Shown here: in pieces, positions 2,240 through 11,151 of the stretch
Numbering within the stretch: the stretch's first letter is position 1
Layout of the letters: the number at the start of each line of letters is the position of its first letter
NCBI GenBank assembly: GCA_964577735.1
Contig: CAZOAX010000001.1
Span: 348 to 27,178, forward strand
DNA: 26,831 bases
Origin: an uncultured bacterium
GTDB lineage: Bacteria > Chlamydiota > Chlamydiia > Chlamydiales > Parachlamydiaceae
Direction of reading: 5' to 3'
Made by a program: the position numbers and the translations under genes
The notes under the pieces: generated by a model
The model's database searches: none
What the model was told of the DNA's origin: nothing
What the model saw: only the letters and a program-made list of their open reading frames with translations

Positions 2240-3658
2240 TTATAGCACGCGTCCGATCAAGTCGTAATCTGCAACATCTGTGATTTCTACTTTAAAGATC
2301 TGTCCAAATCCGGTGACATTTCTGCAATCGTTGATGATCACCTGTCCATCGATATCCGGGCATTGTCCCATATGGCGACCGACCATCAACATTTTCGTTT
2401 CCGGGTGATAGCCTTCCACAACGACATCCAATGTTTTGCCGACCATCTTTTTGTTCAGTTTCTTCACTTGGGCTTTTTGTGCTTTCATCAGCTTGTTCCA
2501 GCGTTGCTCCTTTACCTCTTCTGGAATTTGATCAGGAAGGTCATAGGCTGCTGAATCTGGCTCGCGTGAGAATTTAAAGATCCCGACGTTATCAAGCGGA
2601 TATTGCTTAACAAAAGCGTGAAGTTCTTCAAATTGCTCTTCTGTTTCACCCGGGAAGCCAACGATCAAGCTTGTTCGAATGGAGATTTCAGGAATTTCTC
2701 TTCTTAGAGATTCGATTGTTTTTACAATGTCTTCTTTAGATGTAGCACGGCGCATCGATTTTAAGATGGTATTGTTCACATGCTGGATCGGCATGTCTAA
2801 ATAAGGGCAAATTCTTGCATCGCTCTTCATGAGGGCGATCAATTCATCTGTGATCTCATCTGGATAAAGATAAAGCAGGCGGAGCCAGAACGGCTTATCA
2901 ATCGCAAGGATCGACTTCAATAGTTCAAGCAAACCTTCCAGTTTCTTCTTGCCTTGGTCTTTGCCGTAATCACCTAAGTCTTGTGCGATCAGAACGACTT
3001 CTTTAACGCCTTGATTAAGAAGAATATTAAATTCTTTTAAGATCTGCTCTTGGTTTTTGCTCTTTAGCGGGCCTTTGATTGTCGGGATAATGCAATAAGC
3101 GCAGCGCTTACGGCACCCTTCTGCAATCTTTAAATAAGCAAAGTGTTTTGGCGTCGATAGTTTTCTTGGCGCTTCACCAGCTTCAAGATAGCTCTTGGCA
3201 CTTGTGATCCTTTGGCCGTCTTGCGTAGATTGAACGGCGTGCAAAATACCCTCGACATCTCCTGAACCAAGGAGATAATTAATGCCGGGAAAACGTTCTT
3301 TTAGCGGAGAGCTATGTGTTTGCACCATGCAACCGGTTACAATGAGCTTGGCTGTCTTTTTACGCGTTTTTAAGCACTCATCCACGACGTCCATGGACTC
3401 ATTGCGGGAAGCTTCCAAAAATCCGCAGGTATTGACCACGATAAAATCTGCTTCTTCAAGCAGTTCTTCATGTTGGTAGCCTGCGCGTAGTAGAATTCCG
3501 AGCATTACCTCGCTGTCCACTAAGTTTCTTGGGCAGCCCAAGCTGATAAAATGGATTTTATTCCCTTCAAAGATGAAAGGGTGGTCTTGAGTCTTTAAAG
3601 GCTCTTCAATTACTTCAATTGAAGGTCCACATTTATTCTTTCCGGCAATAGGTAACAC
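2240..3658 (-). CDS. rimO: Ribosomal protein uS12 methylthiotransferase RimO
   Basis: UPF0004 domain (SLGCPRNLVDSE, NTCGF), radical SAM CxxxCxxC (CRKRCAYC), C-terminal TRAM-like region with PDIDG typical of RimO rather than MiaB. GTG start preceded by GGAG. Confidence 0.93.
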   Translation of the reverse strand: MLPIAGKNKCGPSIEVIEEPLKTQDHPFIFEGNKIHFISLGCPRNLVDSEVMLGILLRAGYQHEELLEEADFIVVNTCGFLEASRNESMDVVDECLKTRKKTAKLIVTGCMVQTHSSPLKERFPGINYLLGSGDVEGILHAVQSTQDGQRITSAKSYLEAGEAPRKLSTPKHFAYLKIAEGCRKRCAYCIIPTIKGPLKSKNQEQILKEFNILLNQGVKEVVLIAQDLGDYGKDQGKKKLEGLLELLKSILAIDKPFWLRLLYLYPDEITDELIALMKSDARICPYLDMPIQHVNNTILKSMRRATSKEDIVKTIESLRREIPEISIRTSLIVGFPGETEEQFEELHAFVKQYPLDNVGIFKFSREPDSAAYDLPDQIPEEVKEQRWNKLMKAQKAQVKKLNKKMVGKTLDVVVEGYHPETKMLMVGRHMGQCPDIDGQVIINDCRNVTGFGQIFKVEITDVADYDLIGRVL

Positions 3659-3780: not shown

Positions 3781-3808
3781 TTGTTTAATTGTTGTTAAAT
3801 GATATAAT
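3781..3808 (+). promoter_or_regulatory. Sigma66/70-type promoter with extended -10 for the paralog array
   Basis: TTGTTT-N16-TATAAT with TG at the extended position (TGaTATAAT, 3800..3808), in an AT-rich divergent intergenic region. Confidence 0.55.
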
Positions 3809-3841
3809 TAAGGTAAAATTATTTTTAATAAGGCGGATAAT

Positions 3842-5509
3842 ATGAGTAAAGTTAATGGCAATCAACCAGTTCAACTTAATAGTATCGATCAAATATTTAA
3901 CGGCAGAAGTGGTGGAGATACAGCGATCAATACGGGACTGATCAATGGTTATGGAAAAGACAATGATGTGACCTACCTTATTTCCCATTTGAAAAAAGAT
4001 GACACCATTACGGTTGATCGCGACGTGGATGGACATTTGAGCTGGAAGATTGGAACGACAGATGTAAAAATAGGATCTTCCTGGTGGACTCGTGTCAAAC
4101 ACTCCGTGAAGAAGTTTTTCTCAGCCAAATACAAGGATGCGTCAGACATCAAAGTGATGCAAAATGCCGATAAGATCAGAAGGGCTTACGCTGTTTGCTT
4201 GCAGCAGGAAGAAGCTAAAGCAGATGTTGATAATAATTACTTAGCAAATCTGAAAGATCTACGACAAGCAGCGGATGATGTCATCGCTCAAAATGAAAAG
4301 GATGCAAATGACCTAATCCTTCAAAAACAAGAAGAAATTAGAGTTGCCAAGGAAGCCAAAGATCAAAAAATTTCCGATTTGACCAGCCAAATTAACACCG
4401 GCGAAGGTGAACTTGCGGAGTTAAGGGAAAATCGAACAAATGCAAATGACAAGATTCAAGAGCAAAATGACAAGCTCACAGAGTTAAATACTTCTAAAGA
4501 TGCATTGCTAACCAAAGAAGCATATGAATCTCTTCTTGGAACCATCAAAACAGTCAGAGACACATTCAAAGAGATTAATCTTTATGCCAACGATGAAGAA
4601 AAACAAATCATTAGGACAAGCGAAGGTATTCTAGGTGTTAAATTAGTCAATAATATTGATGCATGGCCGCCTGTATTAAATGAAACGGTTGTAAAGCAAA
4701 AAGAAAATGAAATTAATCAAGCTCTCGAATCTCTCAATGGATATGTTACTGATATTGAGGAAAGAAATAAAATGATTATTAAGTATCAGGAGATTGTGCA
4801 AGCTCTTGAAACGCAAATTTCAGAAAAAGAAACAGCAATCAATACATTAAGAACTGATTTGCAAGCAGAACAGGCTGTAGAGGAAGAAGAAGTTTCAGAA
4901 GAGACTACAGTTGAAGAGCCTATTCCAAAAGTGATTGACGCAGAACCTGAGGTATCTGCAGAAGATCAAGCGATTGCAAATACGATGCAGAATCAAAGGC
5001 TAGATCGTGACGAGGCCATTTTCTACAACGGGCTCAATGCCAATGAAAAAGAGCTTTATGACAATCTGCGTAAACCGGCAGATAGGGCCACAGATTGCAC
5101 TCCGTTTGCCGATTTCTTTGTTTCAGTATTGAAAGGCAGAGGTGTGAAGAGGACTGCAAATGGCGCTACTTCAACAATTACATTGAGCAATCCTGGTGTT
5201 GTGTCTATGAGACTTGGAGGAGATCCTTCAACTATTACACTGCCAGCAAAGTTCACCATGACTTATGCAGTAGACAAGCAAACCTGGACCCTTAACGGTA
5301 AAGGTTTAAGAATTGAATTGTACGGGCATGATGTCAATCTGGATGAAACCAGATTTGAGATTCGGGCGAATGATCTGAACATCAAGGCCGAAAGTTCAAA
5401 ACAGTCATTTTTCGTCCGGATGGGGATTGCGACAGCTTACAAAAACATCCCTGTTGCCTACGACGTCGTCAAGCAGGATGCATTTCATTCTGATAATCAA
5501 GTGGTTTAG
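3842..5509 (+). CDS. Orphan coiled-coil protein, paralog 1 (555 aa), putative secreted effector with extra C-terminal domain
   Basis: Shares the head domain (VQLNSIDQIF...NDVTYL.SH...ITVDRDVDGHL.WKIG...GSSWW.RVK) with 5582 and 6717. Then a long heptad region, an acidic linker (EEEEVSEETTVEEP) and a ~170-aa beta-rich C-terminus. No signal peptide or transmembrane segment. Confidence 0.85.
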   Translation: MSKVNGNQPVQLNSIDQIFNGRSGGDTAINTGLINGYGKDNDVTYLISHLKKDDTITVDRDVDGHLSWKIGTTDVKIGSSWWTRVKHSVKKFFSAKYKDASDIKVMQNADKIRRAYAVCLQQEEAKADVDNNYLANLKDLRQAADDVIAQNEKDANDLILQKQEEIRVAKEAKDQKISDLTSQINTGEGELAELRENRTNANDKIQEQNDKLTELNTSKDALLTKEAYESLLGTIKTVRDTFKEINLYANDEEKQIIRTSEGILGVKLVNNIDAWPPVLNETVVKQKENEINQALESLNGYVTDIEERNKMIIKYQEIVQALETQISEKETAINTLRTDLQAEQAVEEEEVSEETTVEEPIPKVIDAEPEVSAEDQAIANTMQNQRLDRDEAIFYNGLNANEKELYDNLRKPADRATDCTPFADFFVSVLKGRGVKRTANGATSTITLSNPGVVSMRLGGDPSTITLPAKFTMTYAVDKQTWTLNGKGLRIELYGHDVNLDETRFEIRANDLNIKAESSKQSFFVRMGIATAYKNIPVAYDVVKQDAFHSDNQVV

Positions 5510-5516
5510 AGATTTT

Positions 5517-5546
5517 AGCCAAAATTGCGATTCAGCAGTTTTGGCT
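5517..5546 (+). other. Stem-loop between paralogs 1 and 2
   Basis: AGCCAAAATTGC-GATTCA-GCAGTTTTGGCT: 12-bp stem with one G-U pair and no real U-tract. A TATAAT follows at 5550..5555. Confidence 0.45.
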
Positions 5547-5581
5547 TCCTATAATTAATAGATAAAAAAAGGTGGTAATAT

Positions 5582-6577
5582 ATGAGTATGGTTTCAGGAA
5601 GTGGAGATCATCTAGTTCAACTAAATAGCATTGATCTGATCTTCGCAGGAAAAAAAGGCGGCGACAGTGTTGAGATCAATCAAGGGATTATGAAGGCTTA
5701 TGGAGATGACAATGATGTGACTTACCTTGTCAGTCATGTCAAATTGCCAAAGGGAGATAAAGAGCCTAAGGCTATCACGGTCGATCGCGATGTGGATGGG
5801 CACCTGACATGGAAAATTGGCGATAAAGAAGTTCATCTCGGATCTTCCTGGTGGGTACGGGTCAAGCATGCTATCATGTCGTTCTTCTCAAAGGACTATA
5901 GAATTAAGCATGAGATTGATGTGACAAGGAAAATTGATAGGATCCGAAATGCTTACGCTGAATGCTTGGACAAAGAATACCAAGCAGAGGAAGCTGCAGC
6001 AGAGGCACTTAGACAGCAGCAAGCAGATATAGACGATGCAGCGCTACTTGCTCAACAGCAGCAAGAAGCTGAGGATGCGGCGTTGTTACTGCAGCAACAG
6101 GAAGCAGCTAAGCAGGAAAGAATTGAGGATCTGAAAACAAATATCAGTACTCAAGAGGCAAGCTTGGAGGGCCTAAAAGCGGATCTAGGTATTTTAAATA
6201 CTACAGTGTCTGACTATGAAACTAAATTAGGGGAGATTGTAGATCGTCAAATAGAGCTTGCCACTAAGAAAAATAAAACACTAACGATGATTGACGATTA
6301 TAATTCATGGATCGTTTCAGAGATCAGTAAGAGGGCTTTGCAGGAATTGTATCCAGCATTGAATGGCTTGTCAACTGAGGAAGTGTTAACTGGGTTAAAT
6401 GCGGCCGCCAAGGATATAGATGATGAATCTAATCTGTTAGATCAAGAGTCTGCAACACGTAATACCATGATTGCAGAGATCAGAGATAATCAAATTCCGG
6501 CTAAAAATACAGAAATTACAAATAAGCAGAATGAGATTGCTCAACTTAAAACAGATCTTCTAGCAGAAGAAAGCTAA
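5582..6577 (+). CDS. Orphan coiled-coil protein, paralog 2 (331 aa)
   Basis: Conserved head domain, Gln/Ala linker, heptad-rich body and C-terminus IPAKNTEITNKQNEIAQLK shared with paralog 3. AGGTGG RBS. Confidence 0.88.
   Translation: MSMVSGSGDHLVQLNSIDLIFAGKKGGDSVEINQGIMKAYGDDNDVTYLVSHVKLPKGDKEPKAITVDRDVDGHLTWKIGDKEVHLGSSWWVRVKHAIMSFFSKDYRIKHEIDVTRKIDRIRNAYAECLDKEYQAEEAAAEALRQQQADIDDAALLAQQQQEAEDAALLLQQQEAAKQERIEDLKTNISTQEASLEGLKADLGILNTTVSDYETKLGEIVDRQIELATKKNKTLTMIDDYNSWIVSEISKRALQELYPALNGLSTEEVLTGLNAAAKDIDDESNLLDQESATRNTMIAEIRDNQIPAKNTEITNKQNEIAQLKTDLLAEES
6035..6109 (+). repeat. Two imperfect 39-nt coding repeats (DAALL(A/L)QQQ(Q)EA); equivalent repeat in paralog 3 from 7167
   Basis: Units start at 6035 and 6074. 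In paralog 3 they start at 7167 and 7206. Confidence 0.7.
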
Positions 6578-6588
6578 ACTCTGTTCTT

Positions 6589-6620
6589 TGCCCGACCAGT
6601 TCATGGCCGGGCATTTTTTT
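6589..6620 (+). terminator. Intrinsic terminator after paralog 2
   Basis: TGCCCGACCA-GTTCA-TGGCCGGGCA (one mismatch) followed by T7. Confidence 0.85.
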
Positions 6621-6716
6621 ATGCCAAATTCATTAAGATATTGTTAACAACTATTTTATTTTATTTATATTTAGTTTACAATTTTACAAAAACTTTTATA
6701 AAAAATAGGTGATAAT

Positions 6717-7757
6717 ATGAGTAAGATCTCAAATGGTGGAGCACCGGTTCAACTTAATAGTATTGATCAGATCTTCGTAGGTAAGAACGGCGGCGATAGC
6801 ATTGATATCAATCAGGGCTTTCTAAAGGTTTATGGGGATGACAATGATGTAACTTACCTCGTCAGCCATGTCAAATTGCCAAAGGGAGATAAAGAGCCTA
6901 AGGCTATCACGGTCGATCGCGATGTAGATGGGCATCTGACATGGAAAATTGGTGATAAAGAAGTTCATCTCGGGTCTTCTTGGTGGGTACGGGTCAAGCT
7001 TGCCATTATGTCGTTCTTTTCAAAGGACTATAGAATTAAGCATGAAATTGACGTAACAAGGAAAATTGATAGAATCCGCAATGCCTACGCTGAATGCTTG
7101 GACAAAGAATCCGTAGAAGAAGAAGCTACAACAGATCCTCTTGGACAAGAGCAAGCAGATACGGATGCTGCAGCACTATTAGCTCAGCAACAGCAAGAAG
7201 CTGCGGATGCGGCGTTATTGCTCCAGCAGCAGTTAGAAGAAGCTGCAGCAGCTAAGCTTGAAATAATTGAAAATTTGAACACGAAAATCACAGAAAAAGA
7301 ATCAGAGCTTAACGGTTTGCATGGCGACTTAGATACTCTAAACCAAAACCTGGCAACGGTTAATGAAAAGCTAGATGATAATGGTCGTTTTGTCGTAGAG
7401 CTTAATACGAATAAAAATAAAGCTAAACAGATCGTCAATATCTTAGCTCCAGTTTTTGTGTTAAATACAGATTCTATGTTTATTTCAAAGTTTGATGGAA
7501 ACGCCTTAGCTCTTTTTGACCTTGTTCCTGCTGTGCATAATGCCGATCTGTCAAAAGAAGACAAATTGACTGCATTAAATGTTTATATCAAACAACAAGA
7601 AGAAGAAGTTGAGTTGTTGACTAATGATAAGGAAAATCTTAGCAATGCAATTGAGCAATTGACCAATGTTGACATTCCAGCTAAAAATACAGAAATTACA
7701 AATAAGCAGAATGAGATTGCTCAGCTTAAGGCTGATCTTCAAACAGAAGAAGGCTAA
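6717..7757 (+). CDS. Orphan coiled-coil protein, paralog 3 (346 aa)
   Basis: 92/93 aa identical to paralog 2 over YGDDND...CLDKE, with the same C-terminal motif and a divergent middle. AGGTG RBS. Confidence 0.88.
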   Translation: MSKISNGGAPVQLNSIDQIFVGKNGGDSIDINQGFLKVYGDDNDVTYLVSHVKLPKGDKEPKAITVDRDVDGHLTWKIGDKEVHLGSSWWVRVKLAIMSFFSKDYRIKHEIDVTRKIDRIRNAYAECLDKESVEEEATTDPLGQEQADTDAAALLAQQQQEAADAALLLQQQLEEAAAAKLEIIENLNTKITEKESELNGLHGDLDTLNQNLATVNEKLDDNGRFVVELNTNKNKAKQIVNILAPVFVLNTDSMFISKFDGNALALFDLVPAVHNADLSKEDKLTALNVYIKQQEEEVELLTNDKENLSNAIEQLTNVDIPAKNTEITNKQNEIAQLKADLQTEEG

Positions 7758-7762
7758 TACTT

Positions 7763-7792
7763 TGCCCGGCTGTCATGGCCGGGTATTTTTTT
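7763..7792 (+). terminator. Intrinsic terminator after paralog 3, abutting the convergent priA stop
   Basis: TGCCCGGCT-GTCAT-GGCCGGGTA followed by T7. Clearly homologous to the 6589 terminator. Confidence 0.85.
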
Positions 7793-10004
7793 AAAAAAAC
7801 AGCGAGGTGGGATTGATATCAATACACACTTTGAATGGATCTTTTCTTTGATCTTTCACTTTCAGAATGGCACGTTGGATAGCTGCCATCTTCGGTCCTT
7901 TGATCACAAACTGCAAGCGGTACATCTCTTTTATCTTAGCATGGCCGGGTGCATCGACTACGGTCACCTCATATTCAAGAGGCAGTTCTTTGAGTATTTG
8001 CAAACGGAAATTTTCTGCGGCATTTCTTAGCGTGACCGGTTCCTTGCCGGTGAAGCGGATTTTAGCAAGGGAGGCGAATGGGGGATAGCCAAGGAGTTTT
8101 CTTGTATCGTATTCTTCTTTGAAAAAGCTTTCAAAGTCTTGCTTAGAGGCATGCTGGATAGTGCTATTTTCCGGGATGCAGGTTTGGATAAGCACTTCAC
8201 CGGGGTGGATGCCGCGACCTGCTCTGCCGGCGACTTGCGTGAGAAGTTGAAAGGTCGTTTCTCCAGATCTGAAATCGGGAAGATTAAGGCTGATATCGCT
8301 GTTGAGGATGCCGACAAGAGTGACTTCCGGGAAATGGAGCCCTTTGGCAAGCATTTGGGTGCCAATCAAAACGTCAGCTTTTCCGGTCCGGAAAGAGCGG
8401 TAGAGCTTTTGGTGGCTGCCTTTATGCTTTGTGGTATCAGCGTCAAGGCGCAGGATTCTAATTTCGGGGAAAATGGCATAGAGAGCCACTTCCACTTGCT
8501 CAGTGCCGATCCCTTTAAATTTCATGAGCCCTTCAGCTTTGCAGTGGGGGCAGTTTCTTGGGGGTGGGGAGATGGACTCATTGCAGAGATGACAACAGAG
8601 TGTATTGTCATTTTTGTGGAAGGTCAGTGAGAGATCGCACTTGGTGCATTTAATGCTTTCACCGCAAGATGTGCACATCATGAGCGTGTGGAATCCACGT
8701 CTATTGAGAAAGAGAATGGTTTGCTCTCCTTTTCGATACCGTTTTTCAATGCCTGTCAAAAGGGCATCTGAAAAGATCGTCATCCCTTTTTTCTTGTCAT
8801 ACTCCACTTTCATGTCGACAATATTCACAGTGGGCATAGGGGCGTGCTTCGGTCTTGCTTTCAACGTACTTAAAATATACTTACCAGAGATTGCATTGTG
8901 ATAGCTTTCAAGGCTGGGTGTGGCGCTACCAAGTAAGACAACAGCTTTTGAATAAAATCCCCGCATAACAGCCACGTCTCTTGCATGGTAGGCAGGCATC
9001 ATGTCCGTTTGTTTATAGGAGCTTTCATGTTCTTCATCGACGAGGATCAGGCCTAGATTTTGTACAGGGCTGAAAATAGCAGATCTCGCTCCGATCACAA
9101 TTTTAGCCTCTCCCCGCTGGATCCTTTTCCATTCGTCATATTTTTCACCGGCACTTAGGCGGTAGTGCAGGATGGCGGTCTTTCCTTCAAAGCGGCTTCT
9201 AAAATGTTCAATGGTCTGTGTGGTCAGCGCGATCTCCGGCACGAGCATGATCACGCCTTTATTCAGTTCCAATGCCTTTGCAATAGCTTGGAGATAGATC
9301 TCGGTTTTGCCGCTGCCTGTGACGCCATGGATCAGATGGGTCTCATAATGGTTTTTGTCGAGCCCTGCGTGGATTTTTTCCATGACAATGGATTGCTCTT
9401 CAGTCAACTGTTTTGGTTTGGAGCGGAAATATTCTTCGCCGACAAGAGGGGATCTATCGATCCGTGCTTTCTCTAAGTGCAGAATGCCTTTAGTCACGAG
9501 TGTATTTAATGAAGATCTTCCGGCTCCTGTTTTTTCTAATAGCTCGCTAAGAAAAACCTTGCCTTCAGCTTTTAGCATGTAGTCGAGGATCTCTGATTGG
9601 GGATGGGATTTTTTTCGAATGGTGACGAGGTCTTCTGCTATTTCCTTTCTTGTTTTTACACGGGAGACAAGGTATTGCTCTTTATGTTTTGTGTTTTTAA
9701 TGGCAGAGGGGACTAAAGATGGCAGGATAAGAGAAAGGGGTGTGCAGTAATAACCTGACATCCAGCCTGCCACTTGTAGTAAATCACTTGCAATGAACGG
9801 GATGGGGTCTAGAATTTTCTCGATCGACTTAAGCGCATAGGGAGGGGCTTTATCCGTGATATTTAACACAATCCCTTTTTTCATCACCCCTCTTAAGGGA
9901 ATTTCGACAAGCTGCCCAAGTTTAATTTGCGAAAGGAGGGATTCTGGAATTAGGTAATCAAAGGTTTTATCGATCTTTAGATCTAAAGCGATGTTTGCAA
10001 TCAT
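7791..10004 (-). CDS. priA: Primosomal protein N' (replication restart helicase PriA)
   Basis: N-terminal 3'-DNA-binding region (FDYLIP..GQLVEIPLR), Walker A HGVTGSGKT, VDEEHE, four CxxC pairs (CTSC, CTKC, CHLC, CPHC), QVAGRAGR. Confidence 0.98.
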   Translation of the reverse strand: MIANIALDLKIDKTFDYLIPESLLSQIKLGQLVEIPLRGVMKKGIVLNITDKAPPYALKSIEKILDPIPFIASDLLQVAGWMSGYYCTPLSLILPSLVPSAIKNTKHKEQYLVSRVKTRKEIAEDLVTIRKKSHPQSEILDYMLKAEGKVFLSELLEKTGAGRSSLNTLVTKGILHLEKARIDRSPLVGEEYFRSKPKQLTEEQSIVMEKIHAGLDKNHYETHLIHGVTGSGKTEIYLQAIAKALELNKGVIMLVPEIALTTQTIEHFRSRFEGKTAILHYRLSAGEKYDEWKRIQRGEAKIVIGARSAIFSPVQNLGLILVDEEHESSYKQTDMMPAYHARDVAVMRGFYSKAVVLLGSATPSLESYHNAISGKYILSTLKARPKHAPMPTVNIVDMKVEYDKKKGMTIFSDALLTGIEKRYRKGEQTILFLNRRGFHTLMMCTSCGESIKCTKCDLSLTFHKNDNTLCCHLCNESISPPPRNCPHCKAEGLMKFKGIGTEQVEVALYAIFPEIRILRLDADTTKHKGSHQKLYRSFRTGKADVLIGTQMLAKGLHFPEVTLVGILNSDISLNLPDFRSGETTFQLLTQVAGRAGRGIHPGEVLIQTCIPENSTIQHASKQDFESFFKEEYDTRKLLGYPPFASLAKIRFTGKEPVTLRNAAENFRLQILKELPLEYEVTVVDAPGHAKIKEMYRLQFVIKGPKMAAIQRAILKVKDQRKDPFKVCIDINPTSLFF

Positions 10005-10621
10005 AATAATGCAAGGATCTCATTCCATACATCGCGTCGTTTAGAAGGCTGTTCGATCAGTTCTAAAAGGGAGGGGATGGCAAGGGCGCCACTTTCTCCA
10101 ATGAGAAGCTTTCCTGAAGCTCCTTTTCTGGCATGCACTTTAATGTGCTGATGATTACTAAACGTCGTTCTTGAGCCTATCAAGACGTTGGAAGGGTTTT
10201 GCATGTGTTCATCTTTTAGATCAGATGCTGAAAAAAGATAGGCAGTGTGCCCCGCTTTTTTTAGAGCTGAAGTGATGTTCTCAAGCAGTTTCACTTCGGG
10301 TTCTGATTCCTGGTCAAAAAGAATGATTGCGGTCTTTTGAATCTCAATCGGTAAATCGACAAGCTTTAGTTTAGGACAATGAGTTTTTAGCATCTCCAGT
10401 ATCGGGTCTAGATTACAGGAAGCTGTTTCTACTTGAATGATTTCTTTGACAGCAGGCGGTTCTTTTTTAATCAAAATGGGTTTAGGAATGACTGTTGGAA
10501 TCACTTTGTTTTCAATGGGCAGGGCGGCTGGTTTTGGCAAGGGAGGAGCTTTTTTGGGAAGCTGCTCCATTAATAGCGATTTGGCAAGGCCAATGATTTC
10601 AAGATATTCCTGTGTTAGCAT
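10001..10621 (-). CDS. Hypothetical protein (206 aa), translationally coupled to priA
   Basis: ATGA overlap with the priA start. N-terminal helix, Pro-rich linker, alpha/beta domain ending PSLLELIEQPSKRRDVWNEI. Confidence 0.75.
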   Translation of the reverse strand: MLTQEYLEIIGLAKSLLMEQLPKKAPPLPKPAALPIENKVIPTVIPKPILIKKEPPAVKEIIQVETASCNLDPILEMLKTHCPKLKLVDLPIEIQKTAIILFDQESEPEVKLLENITSALKKAGHTAYLFSASDLKDEHMQNPSNVLIGSRTTFSNHQHIKVHARKGASGKLLIGESGALAIPSLLELIEQPSKRRDVWNEILALL

Positions 10622-11151
10622 CGGGTCAGGCCTGCAAGATAAGTGCGAATGGAAGGTGTGAGATGGGAAAAGCCTCTTTCCTGATATTTATTGATGAGGA
10701 ATTGTTCCGTTTGCTTGAGTCCCTGATGTTTTTTTTTGAAGAGGTTTAGTAAAAATACACGACCGAATATCTTTTTACATTCTTCCTGGTGGCGGAGTAG
10801 GAAAAAGTAAAGGTTTTCATCTGGTTCAAATGCAACCAGGAATTTTGCAATTAAATCATAGAGAGGTTGGATCTTGGTTTCATTAAACTTCTCATTTTCA
10901 ATTTCTTGAATGGTGAGGTCGATCCTTTTTTTCAAATTTGCCGATAGATCGCTTTCTTTAAGGTAATCGGCTTGGAATCTCAACTGATGAAAAAGCCCTA
11001 AATTTTCTTGCCAAGGCGGAGTGTCACTTGTCGATTTGACAAGTTCTGCTGCGGGTTTGGATTGAATGGCTTTCTGCAGACGGAACACTGTCGTTAGAAA
11101 GAGTTGAACTTGCAAGGCTGGCTGAAAACTAGAGAGTTTAAATCGATTCAT
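10615..11151 (-). CDS. Hypothetical helical protein (178 aa)
   Basis: Open frame whose stop overlaps the next gene's start by 7 nt. Protein-like composition. No family recognised with certainty. Confidence 0.7.
   Translation of the reverse strand: MNRFKLSSFQPALQVQLFLTTVFRLQKAIQSKPAAELVKSTSDTPPWQENLGLFHQLRFQADYLKESDLSANLKKRIDLTIQEIENEKFNETKIQPLYDLIAKFLVAFEPDENLYFFLLRHQEECKKIFGRVFLLNLFKKKHQGLKQTEQFLINKYQERGFSHLTPSIRTYLAGLTRC

Follow-up and report, generated by a model that had tools for sequence, protein, structure and literature searches.

Three tandem genes stand between rimO and priA in a stretch of 26,831 nucleotides (the window) from an uncultured bacterium of the Parachlamydiaceae, and this locus raises the question of what kind of protein they encode and on which side of the bacterial envelope such a protein works. 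A first-pass annotation had read them as a family of three orphan proteins with an unrecognised head domain and a proposed secreted role. In our analysis they evidently belong to an unnamed and structurally unassigned two-domain family, which to all appearances is lineage-specific, evolves fast, and belongs to a narrow uncultured Parachlamydiaceae clade. We think, with moderate confidence, that its members would be exported by a type III secretion system (T3SS) and act in the host (amoeba) cell.

All three genes lie co-oriented on the + strand, as had been described. Gene 1 (P0001, 3842-5509) is an open reading frame (ORF) for a long form of 555 amino acids, with full-length relatives P0006, P0012, P0013, P0015, P0019, and P0021; gene 2 (P0002, 5582-6577) and gene 3 (P0003, 6717-7757, from ORF and alignment) encode short forms of 331 and 346 amino acids. 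Upstream extension of the three ORFs is impossible, each of them starting at the first start codon past a stop. The left flank is rimO (2240-3658, - strand; Pfam UPF0004, Radical_SAM, and TRAM) and the right flank is priA (7791-10004, - strand; Pfam scan). Common to the three proteins is an N-terminal head of about 130 amino acids, which spans residues 1-128 of gene 1 (3842-4225, +; alignments A2 and A3) and residues 1-135 of both gene 2 (5582-5986, +) and gene 3 (6717-7121, +), and in which every motif that had been named earlier is present (alignment A1). In the head, gene 2 has 87-88% identity to gene 3, and either of the two has 57-58% to gene 1. When 5.8 billion proteins were searched through a word index, the paralogues found each other at E 1e-35 to 1e-70, a similarity that is evidently far beyond chance.

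The statement that the head is not a named domain has stood, as the profile and fold searches gave no significant match, a known cytosolic domain included. Pfam and NCBIfam scans of the three proteins returned only sub-threshold coiled-coil noise, and no PDB sequence came under E 0.08 with profiles of the head (A3) or of the C-terminal domain of gene 1 (A4). A language-model search with P0001 provided no usable match, and the fold searches of the head were without a significant match as well (Foldseek PDB, AFDB clusters, ESM Atlas, and exhaustive VIA-align). An identity as a coiled-coil ATPase of the SMC/Rad50/TrlF type was considered and discarded, the scores being 8-21 bits against cut-offs of 350-567 and falling mostly over the coiled coil.

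The head was modelled with moderate confidence (predicted local distance difference test, pLDDT, of 70.8 and predicted template modelling score, pTM, of 0.59; a second predictor gave pLDDT 75-77). In the model, residues 1-9 are disordered and are followed by three short helices, a three-strand meander, a helix at residues 89-101, and a long stalk helix. The first 25 residues are polar with few acidic ones, 7-15 of them being S, T, N, Q, G, or P. Helix 89-101 is the WWxRVK..FFS segment, for which amphipathic periodicity and a membrane-binding function had been claimed. The helix itself is modelled, but its hydrophobic moment of 0.27-0.44 does not rise above that of same-residue shuffles (fraction reaching it 0.08-0.40), and we have dropped the amphipathic helix. 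It is more likely that the conserved aromatics of this segment form the core of the folded head. As had been noted, the three proteins have neither a transmembrane segment nor a Sec signal: the Kyte-Doolittle 19-residue means peak at 0.65, 0.69, and 1.51, and no lipobox, autotransporter domain, or membrane anchor is seen in them.

The long heptad regions that had been reported behind the head are also found, with raised heptad periodicity in two arms at approximately residues 170-235 and 281-336 and a variable, Pro/Gly-containing break between them. The arms may form an antiparallel coiled-coil hairpin. In gene 1 the heptad-rich region covers residues 129-345 (4226-4876, +), with the break near residues 250-280. 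A tail motif is kept in all three proteins, and the tail of the short forms is Glu-rich. Gene 1 runs on beyond this tail into an acidic, Pro-containing linker (residues 346-385; 4877-4996, +) and then into a conserved C-terminal domain of about 170 amino acids (residues 386-555; 4997-5506, +), which is common to all long relatives (alignment A4) and which the earlier description, correct on the head and the heptad arms, had overlooked. Genes 2 and 3 are truncated short forms that stop at the linker; gene 2, for instance, consists of head, arms, and conserved tail, without the C-terminal domain.

The C-terminal domain of gene 1 is modelled confidently (pLDDT 83.5, pTM 0.81), as four helices followed by ten consecutive strands in a beta meander. 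With a match defined as a template modelling (TM) score of at least 0.5 or a Z score of at least 8, it has no structural neighbour, the best Z being 3.7 among 48,161 chains and the TM score at most 0.44. The domain is thus a candidate for a new fold.

The head is a modular element. In every true profile match it begins at residues 1-7, in proteins of 149-762 amino acids, and what stands behind it varies: the beta domain (P0001 and others), no module at all (the short forms), a hydrolase-like module, a BTB/LRR-like module (LRR, leucine-rich repeat), or a helical module on contig C17 of the same genome. The hydrolase-like case is P0014, in which a GxSxG alpha/beta-hydrolase-like module follows the head (Abhydrolase_1 at E 3e-4, below the cut-off). 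For the region behind the head in P0016 and P0017, the look-alikes returned by a language model are chlamydial LRR and BTB/BACK/LRR proteins (scores 0.86-0.89 for P0016), which we take as a lead only. A tree of heads places those of the hydrolase type and of the BTB/LRR type within the family, which argues that one head has been recombined with different cargo. A remoter version of the head is followed, where the sequence goes on (contigs C391 and C173), by an F-box-like motif and leucine-rich repeats; the F-box-like match has E 0.019, below the cut-off, the repeats are above the Pfam cut-off in C173, and the F-box/LRR look-alikes score 0.93-0.95. As regards the surroundings of these genes, that of P0016 lies between an IS110-family transposase and aas (acyltransferase/AMP-binding) on the relative L072 (334-6875), and aas is also found a few genes upstream of the rimO-priA array of the relative L052.

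How large and how widespread the family is could be followed with the head profile. Searched against 1.84 billion cluster representatives, it gave 18 matches, among them two spurious repeat proteins (P0018 and P0020). The true matches stem from the window's own genome, Logan assemblies, or metagenomes of the Joint Genome Institute, and those relatives that were looked up carry no informative protein name. The term orphan is therefore right as far as Pfam, NCBIfam, and PDB are concerned, but metagenome assemblies contain about 16 clusters of relatives. Among the representatives of 73 species of the family and 400 of the phylum, strong head matches are confined to the window's own genome, and weak ones point to remote relatives in other genera. 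Head sequence patterns brought no relatives from the genome-contig collection, and a repeat search with the full-length alignment added no members, its candidate list being swamped by coiled-coil words.

The count of three holds for the window but not for the genome (an assembly of 2.5 Mb in 482 contigs, 80% complete), where a head or head-like domain is encoded by at least 12 genes, at least nine of them on other contigs. Two more short forms, of 288 and 320 amino acids, stand in tandem on contig C102 (1196-3100; locus L005), downstream of a gene for a 376-amino-acid all-helical repeat protein. Contig C17 encodes a protein of 798 amino acids that combines the head with a coiled coil and a helical module of about 400 amino acids (E 3.5e-21); a search with the latter module retrieved only unnamed metagenomic relatives. 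A twin of this gene next to it on C17 (L065, 712-3088, - strand) is split by a frameshift in the head helix into ORFs of 102 amino acids, which comprises the head, and 727 amino acids, and is either a pseudogene or an assembly error. A remoter head-like N-terminus is found on contigs C391, C173, C445, and C361 (hhalign probability 85%, E 6.6e-6, and 92%).

Outside this genome, near-identical DNA occurs in one unspecified metagenome, which is likely to be the sample of origin, a related strain in a bioreactor metagenome, and related sequence in wastewater. The wastewater library is labelled RNA-Seq and contains short contigs that are 90-99% identical to rimO, priA, gene 1, and gene 3, so that the organism or a close relative of it is apparently present in the sample. 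We do not take these contigs as a sign of transcription, since rimO and priA are covered too and DNA carry-over is possible.

Of five other Parachlamydiaceae genera examined at this locus, four have priA and rimO in the same direction with 40-400 bp between them, from which it follows that the array is an insertion that split them, placed on the opposite strand. In the fifth genus (L066, G254:C1:560800-563800) a gap of 2.7 kb between priA and rimO holds unrelated opposite-strand ORFs of 363, 197, and 138 amino acids, and the 197-residue product has an Inc-like paired hydrophobic segment. In the Parachlamydiaceae, lineage-specific genes of the host-interaction type may have landed repeatedly at the priA/rimO junction. 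Three metagenomic relatives have the same insertion as the window, likewise with long and short forms in tandem. The identity of these relatives to the window is 95%, 83%, and 87% in rimO and 88%, 67%, and 72% in priA, whereas their syntenic long forms are only 37%, 25%, and 22% identical. The number of gene copies varies among close relatives, a birth-and-death pattern.

Selection is distributed unevenly along these proteins. In comparison with a sister strain (contig L050), the ratio of nonsynonymous to synonymous substitution rates (dN/dS) is 0.02 in the head of gene 2, 0.19 in the head of gene 3, and 0.04 in the C-terminal domain of gene 1, as against 0.26 in arm 1 of gene 2, 0.33 in arm 2 plus tail of gene 3, and 0.52 in the arms of gene 1. 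The synonymous rate is patchy between the strains, from 0 to 0.29 by segment, which suggests recombination. When genes 2 and 3 are compared with each other, head and tail are conserved and the middle is scrambled: no amino acid differs over residues 45-120, even though 17-20% of the codons there show synonymous differences, and the middle is saturated. Recent gene conversion alone is insufficient to account for the identity of the two heads, because of these synonymous differences. In the explanation that we favour, the long form is ancestral, and genes 2 and 3 arose as short forms by recent duplication.

Where, then, would such proteins act? The genome evidently has a non-flagellar T3SS, as it encodes an SctV homologue beside a CopN/HrpJ gatekeeper and a CesT-type chaperone, as well as two further CesT-type chaperones; the T3SS genes found lie on contigs C269 and C179, away from the array. 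There are also five matches to TLC nucleotide transporters (NTT), two of them full-length tandem genes and the rest cut at contig ends. We favour an effector reading because the head is strictly N-terminal, its fusion partners are host-like, a T3SS is present while a Sec signal is absent, and the tandem genes evolve by birth and death. The rapid divergence of the long form relative to rimO, the higher dN/dS of the arms, and the confinement of strong matches to one genome likewise resemble the evolution of effectors. A modular N-terminal head with varied, partly host-like C-termini is the pattern expected of injected effectors, although this is circumstantial. In the mechanism that we propose, the chlamydial T3SS would export the family into the host amoeba cell, with the head as a common N-terminal delivery and/or host-targeting module. 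The arms would serve as a spacer or for oligomerisation and would diversify quickly; they probably fold into an antiparallel hairpin, so that the head and the C-terminal module come to lie close to each other. The C-terminal modules (the beta domain; hydrolase-, BTB/LRR-, or F-box-like/LRR modules in paralogues and relatives) would be interchangeable cargo. What survives of the original proposal of a secreted family is thus the unnamed modular N-terminal head in a T3SS-bearing chlamydia, without the amphipathic membrane-binding helix.

Several points weigh against export. Effectors bound by class I chaperones often have the chaperone gene next to their own, but no chaperone gene lies near the array, the three CesT genes being on other contigs, and the predicted complex of the head with a CesT dimer (from locus L070, contig C51) scored 0.01, which is neutral on binding as such. 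Classical chaperone-binding regions are unfolded, whereas the model of the head is a folded domain (pLDDT 71-77), and proteins rich in coiled coil also work inside bacteria. The host-like fusions rest on sub-threshold Pfam scores or on language-model similarity, in part transitively. The F-box/LRR proteins are tied to the head remotely: hhalign gives C173 a probability of only 35% against the head, this contig being linked to C391 at E 1e-22. Lastly, the secretion itself, the coiled-coil hairpin, and the role of the head are all inferred.

Regarding the chaperone used in that prediction, L070 (1423-3073, - strand) has the gene of this 157-amino-acid CesT-type protein directly 3' of a gene for a 388-amino-acid protein with an N-terminal hydrophobic hairpin and a GHSHGG lipase-like motif. 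The two look like a chaperone-effector pair.

A serious rival is that the family consists of bacterial coiled-coil scaffolds that are not secreted (cytoskeletal, developmental, or envelope-associated), with the head and the C-terminal domain as anchors and the arms as spacers. We consider this less likely than export, even though the architecture is rich in coiled coil, the sole family matches are the weak SMC/Rad50/TrlF-type ones, purifying selection acts strongly on the head and the C-terminal domain, and the folded head, the lack of an adjacent chaperone gene, and the indirect case for export all agree with it. Housekeeping scaffolds are seldom so restricted to a lineage or so fast-evolving as proteins that keep 37% identity where rimO keeps 95%, and copy number varies here among close relatives in a birth-and-death pattern. 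Moreover, the LRR, F-box-like, and hydrolase-like partners of the head have no obvious role inside a bacterium.

It is improbable that the proteins are exported and then kept on the bacterial surface or on the T3SS, as an elementary-body layer, an adhesin-like fibre, or a T3SS-associated part. Surface fibres commonly take the shape of a long coiled-coil stalk that ends in a globular domain, fast evolution and a variable tip would fit exposure to the host, and no enzymatic motif was seen in the window genes by the Pfam and NCBIfam scans. Nevertheless, none of the Sec signal, lipobox, autotransporter domain, or membrane anchor of such proteins is present, the array is not near the T3SS genes found, and the F-box-like/LRR fusion partners indicate the host cytosol. 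Most improbable of all is that the genes are cargo of a mobile element, or encode substrates of another export route, such as a type IV system that reads their acidic C-terminal tail, and that they were inserted horizontally at priA/rimO: the opposite-strand insertion between otherwise adjacent genes, the IS110-family transposase next to the head gene of one relative, and the conserved Glu-rich tail that closes the short forms could be read in this way, but the window holds no integrase, transposase, or flanking repeats at the array, the content of guanine and cytosine in the array (0.38-0.43) is close to that of the surrounding genes, and the insertion is an old one, retained by vertical descent in relatives with only 67-88% identity in priA.

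Effector export by the T3SS, which we favour with moderate confidence, can be extended to a more specific model, which we regard as decidedly doubtful: the head would be a portable N-terminal domain for translocation and host targeting that marks a repertoire of at least 12 effector genes, and the long form would be a tether, in which a coiled-coil hairpin holds the head and a new-fold, possibly lipid-binding beta-groove domain together at its base, while its tip diversifies to keep up with host targets. The effectors of environmental chlamydiae are hard to spot because T3S signals are not conserved in sequence. A conserved, strictly N-terminal head in front of differing C-terminal modules would provide a sequence handle for listing part of the effector repertoire in uncultured lineages, and its role would parallel that of the shared N-terminal domains of the Salmonella pathogenicity island 2 (SPI-2) effectors or the LRT of BteA-like toxins. 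The limits lie in the narrow, uncultured clade and in a function that is deduced.

Some further features of the locus concern the expression of the array and its surroundings. A promoter-like site precedes gene 1 (TTGTTA-16-TAAAAT, 3792-3819, +; 9/12 matches, such sites as a class being no better than shuffles) within the 183-bp divergent region that is common to gene 1 and rimO, and an RBS-like GGCGGA (RBS, ribosome-binding site) stands 6 nt upstream of the ATG of gene 1. Another promoter-like site lies 5' of gene 3 (TTAACA-16-TATATT, 6644-6671, +; 10/12 matches). A terminator-like hairpin with a T run, read from the sequence, follows gene 2 (6590-6620, +), and a strong hairpin of the intrinsic-terminator type (10 pairs, 6 GC) with a T run follows gene 3 (7763-7795, +), where it marks the end of the array and faces the 3' end of priA. 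The two hairpins are alike in sequence, and the start and ribosome-binding regions are alike in genes 1-3; for this reason, the short form seems to have been duplicated as a complete gene-plus-terminator cassette. Beyond priA, two overlapping ORFs of 206 and 178 amino acids (10001-10621 and 10615-11151, - strand) stand between priA and mutS. They have no Pfam matches, and both have counterparts of similar size at the equivalent place in the relatives L052 and L053; they are conserved unknowns.

Comparison with known systems comes to aid in placing the family. The structural leads are weak ones. In the exhaustive structure search, the head came nearest to the N-terminal domain of Salmonella SipA (PDB 2fm9; Z 4.4 over 68 residues, root mean square deviation 3.0 A), which is the N-terminal domain of a T3S effector, as the head is proposed to be; however, this Z is under the noise level of the tool (typical best Z 7-8), the match covers half of the head at 15% identity, and it is a lead rather than a match. 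For the C-terminal domain, beta grooves of the LptA/LptC/AsmA/YdbH type recur among the nearest shapes, all below threshold and as a lead only. The likeness is in the long antiparallel beta meander (TM 0.40-0.44; Z 3.0-3.2 for LptA, LptC, and LolA), but these proteins lack the four N-terminal helices of the C-terminal domain and have no sequence similarity to it. From the Inc proteins of chlamydiae the family differs, as no paired hydrophobic lobes, that is, no bilobed segment forming a two-transmembrane hairpin, were found in the three window proteins (hydropathy peak 0.65-1.51).

With respect to function, the Salmonella SPI-2 effectors SspH2, SseI, SifA, and SseJ have a common N-terminal region of about 100-140 amino acids, and the LRT of BteA comprises its N-terminal 130 amino acids (PMC3417404). 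The likeness to the head is one of function only: a domain of about 100-140 amino acids at the extreme N-terminus of effectors with differing C-termini, which serves for translocation and/or host-membrane targeting. Between the SPI-2 N-termini and the head there is no PDB sequence match at E <= 10 and no fold match; in the exhaustive structure search, SspH1 (9h6w) reached only Z 3.1, in its residues 624-688. The WEK(I/M)xxFF motif of the SPI-2 N-termini differs in spacing from the W-W-x-R-V-K-x5-F-F of the head (read from A3). The LRT of BteA is a helical lipid-raft-targeting domain, whereas the head model has a three-strand beta meander, and sequence and fold searches gave no match here either.

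A parallel in evolution is offered by the F-box/BTB-LRR families NEX1 and PEX1 of the Parachlamydiaceae, which evolve by birth and death and in which the first 20 codons contain a T3S signal that works in experiments (Domman et al. 2014, PMC4209131). They share with the present family the bacterial family, the restriction to lineages, the tandem expansion by birth and death, and the plan of a modular N-terminus with variable C-terminal repeats, and the head-like paralogues on C391 and C173 carry F-box-like and LRR modules. The window genes differ in that Pfam gives no F-box or BTB match in P0001-P0003, even at E <= 1, and no leucine-rich repeats, the proteins continuing as coiled coil instead. 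Moreover, the F-box or BTB is itself N-terminal in NEX1 and PEX1, whereas a separate head of about 115-130 amino acids comes first here.

A remote counterpart comes from Chlamydiales bacterium STE3, an Acanthamoeba symbiont of the Parachlamydiaceae (PMC7225534), whose genome falls in the same GTDB family as that of the window. Its protein KAF3362226.1 is unannotated and is encoded at another locus, 3' of a methyltransferase gene; its head is shorter, and its C-terminal domain is not detectably related, as tested on the counterpart P0032. It also evolves fast, with 25-28% identity within its genus. Nevertheless, hhalign aligns it at 94.7% probability (E 5.6e-8) with the rear half of the head and the beginning of the stalk, and it has the same overall layout of N-terminal motif, coiled coil, and C-terminal domain.

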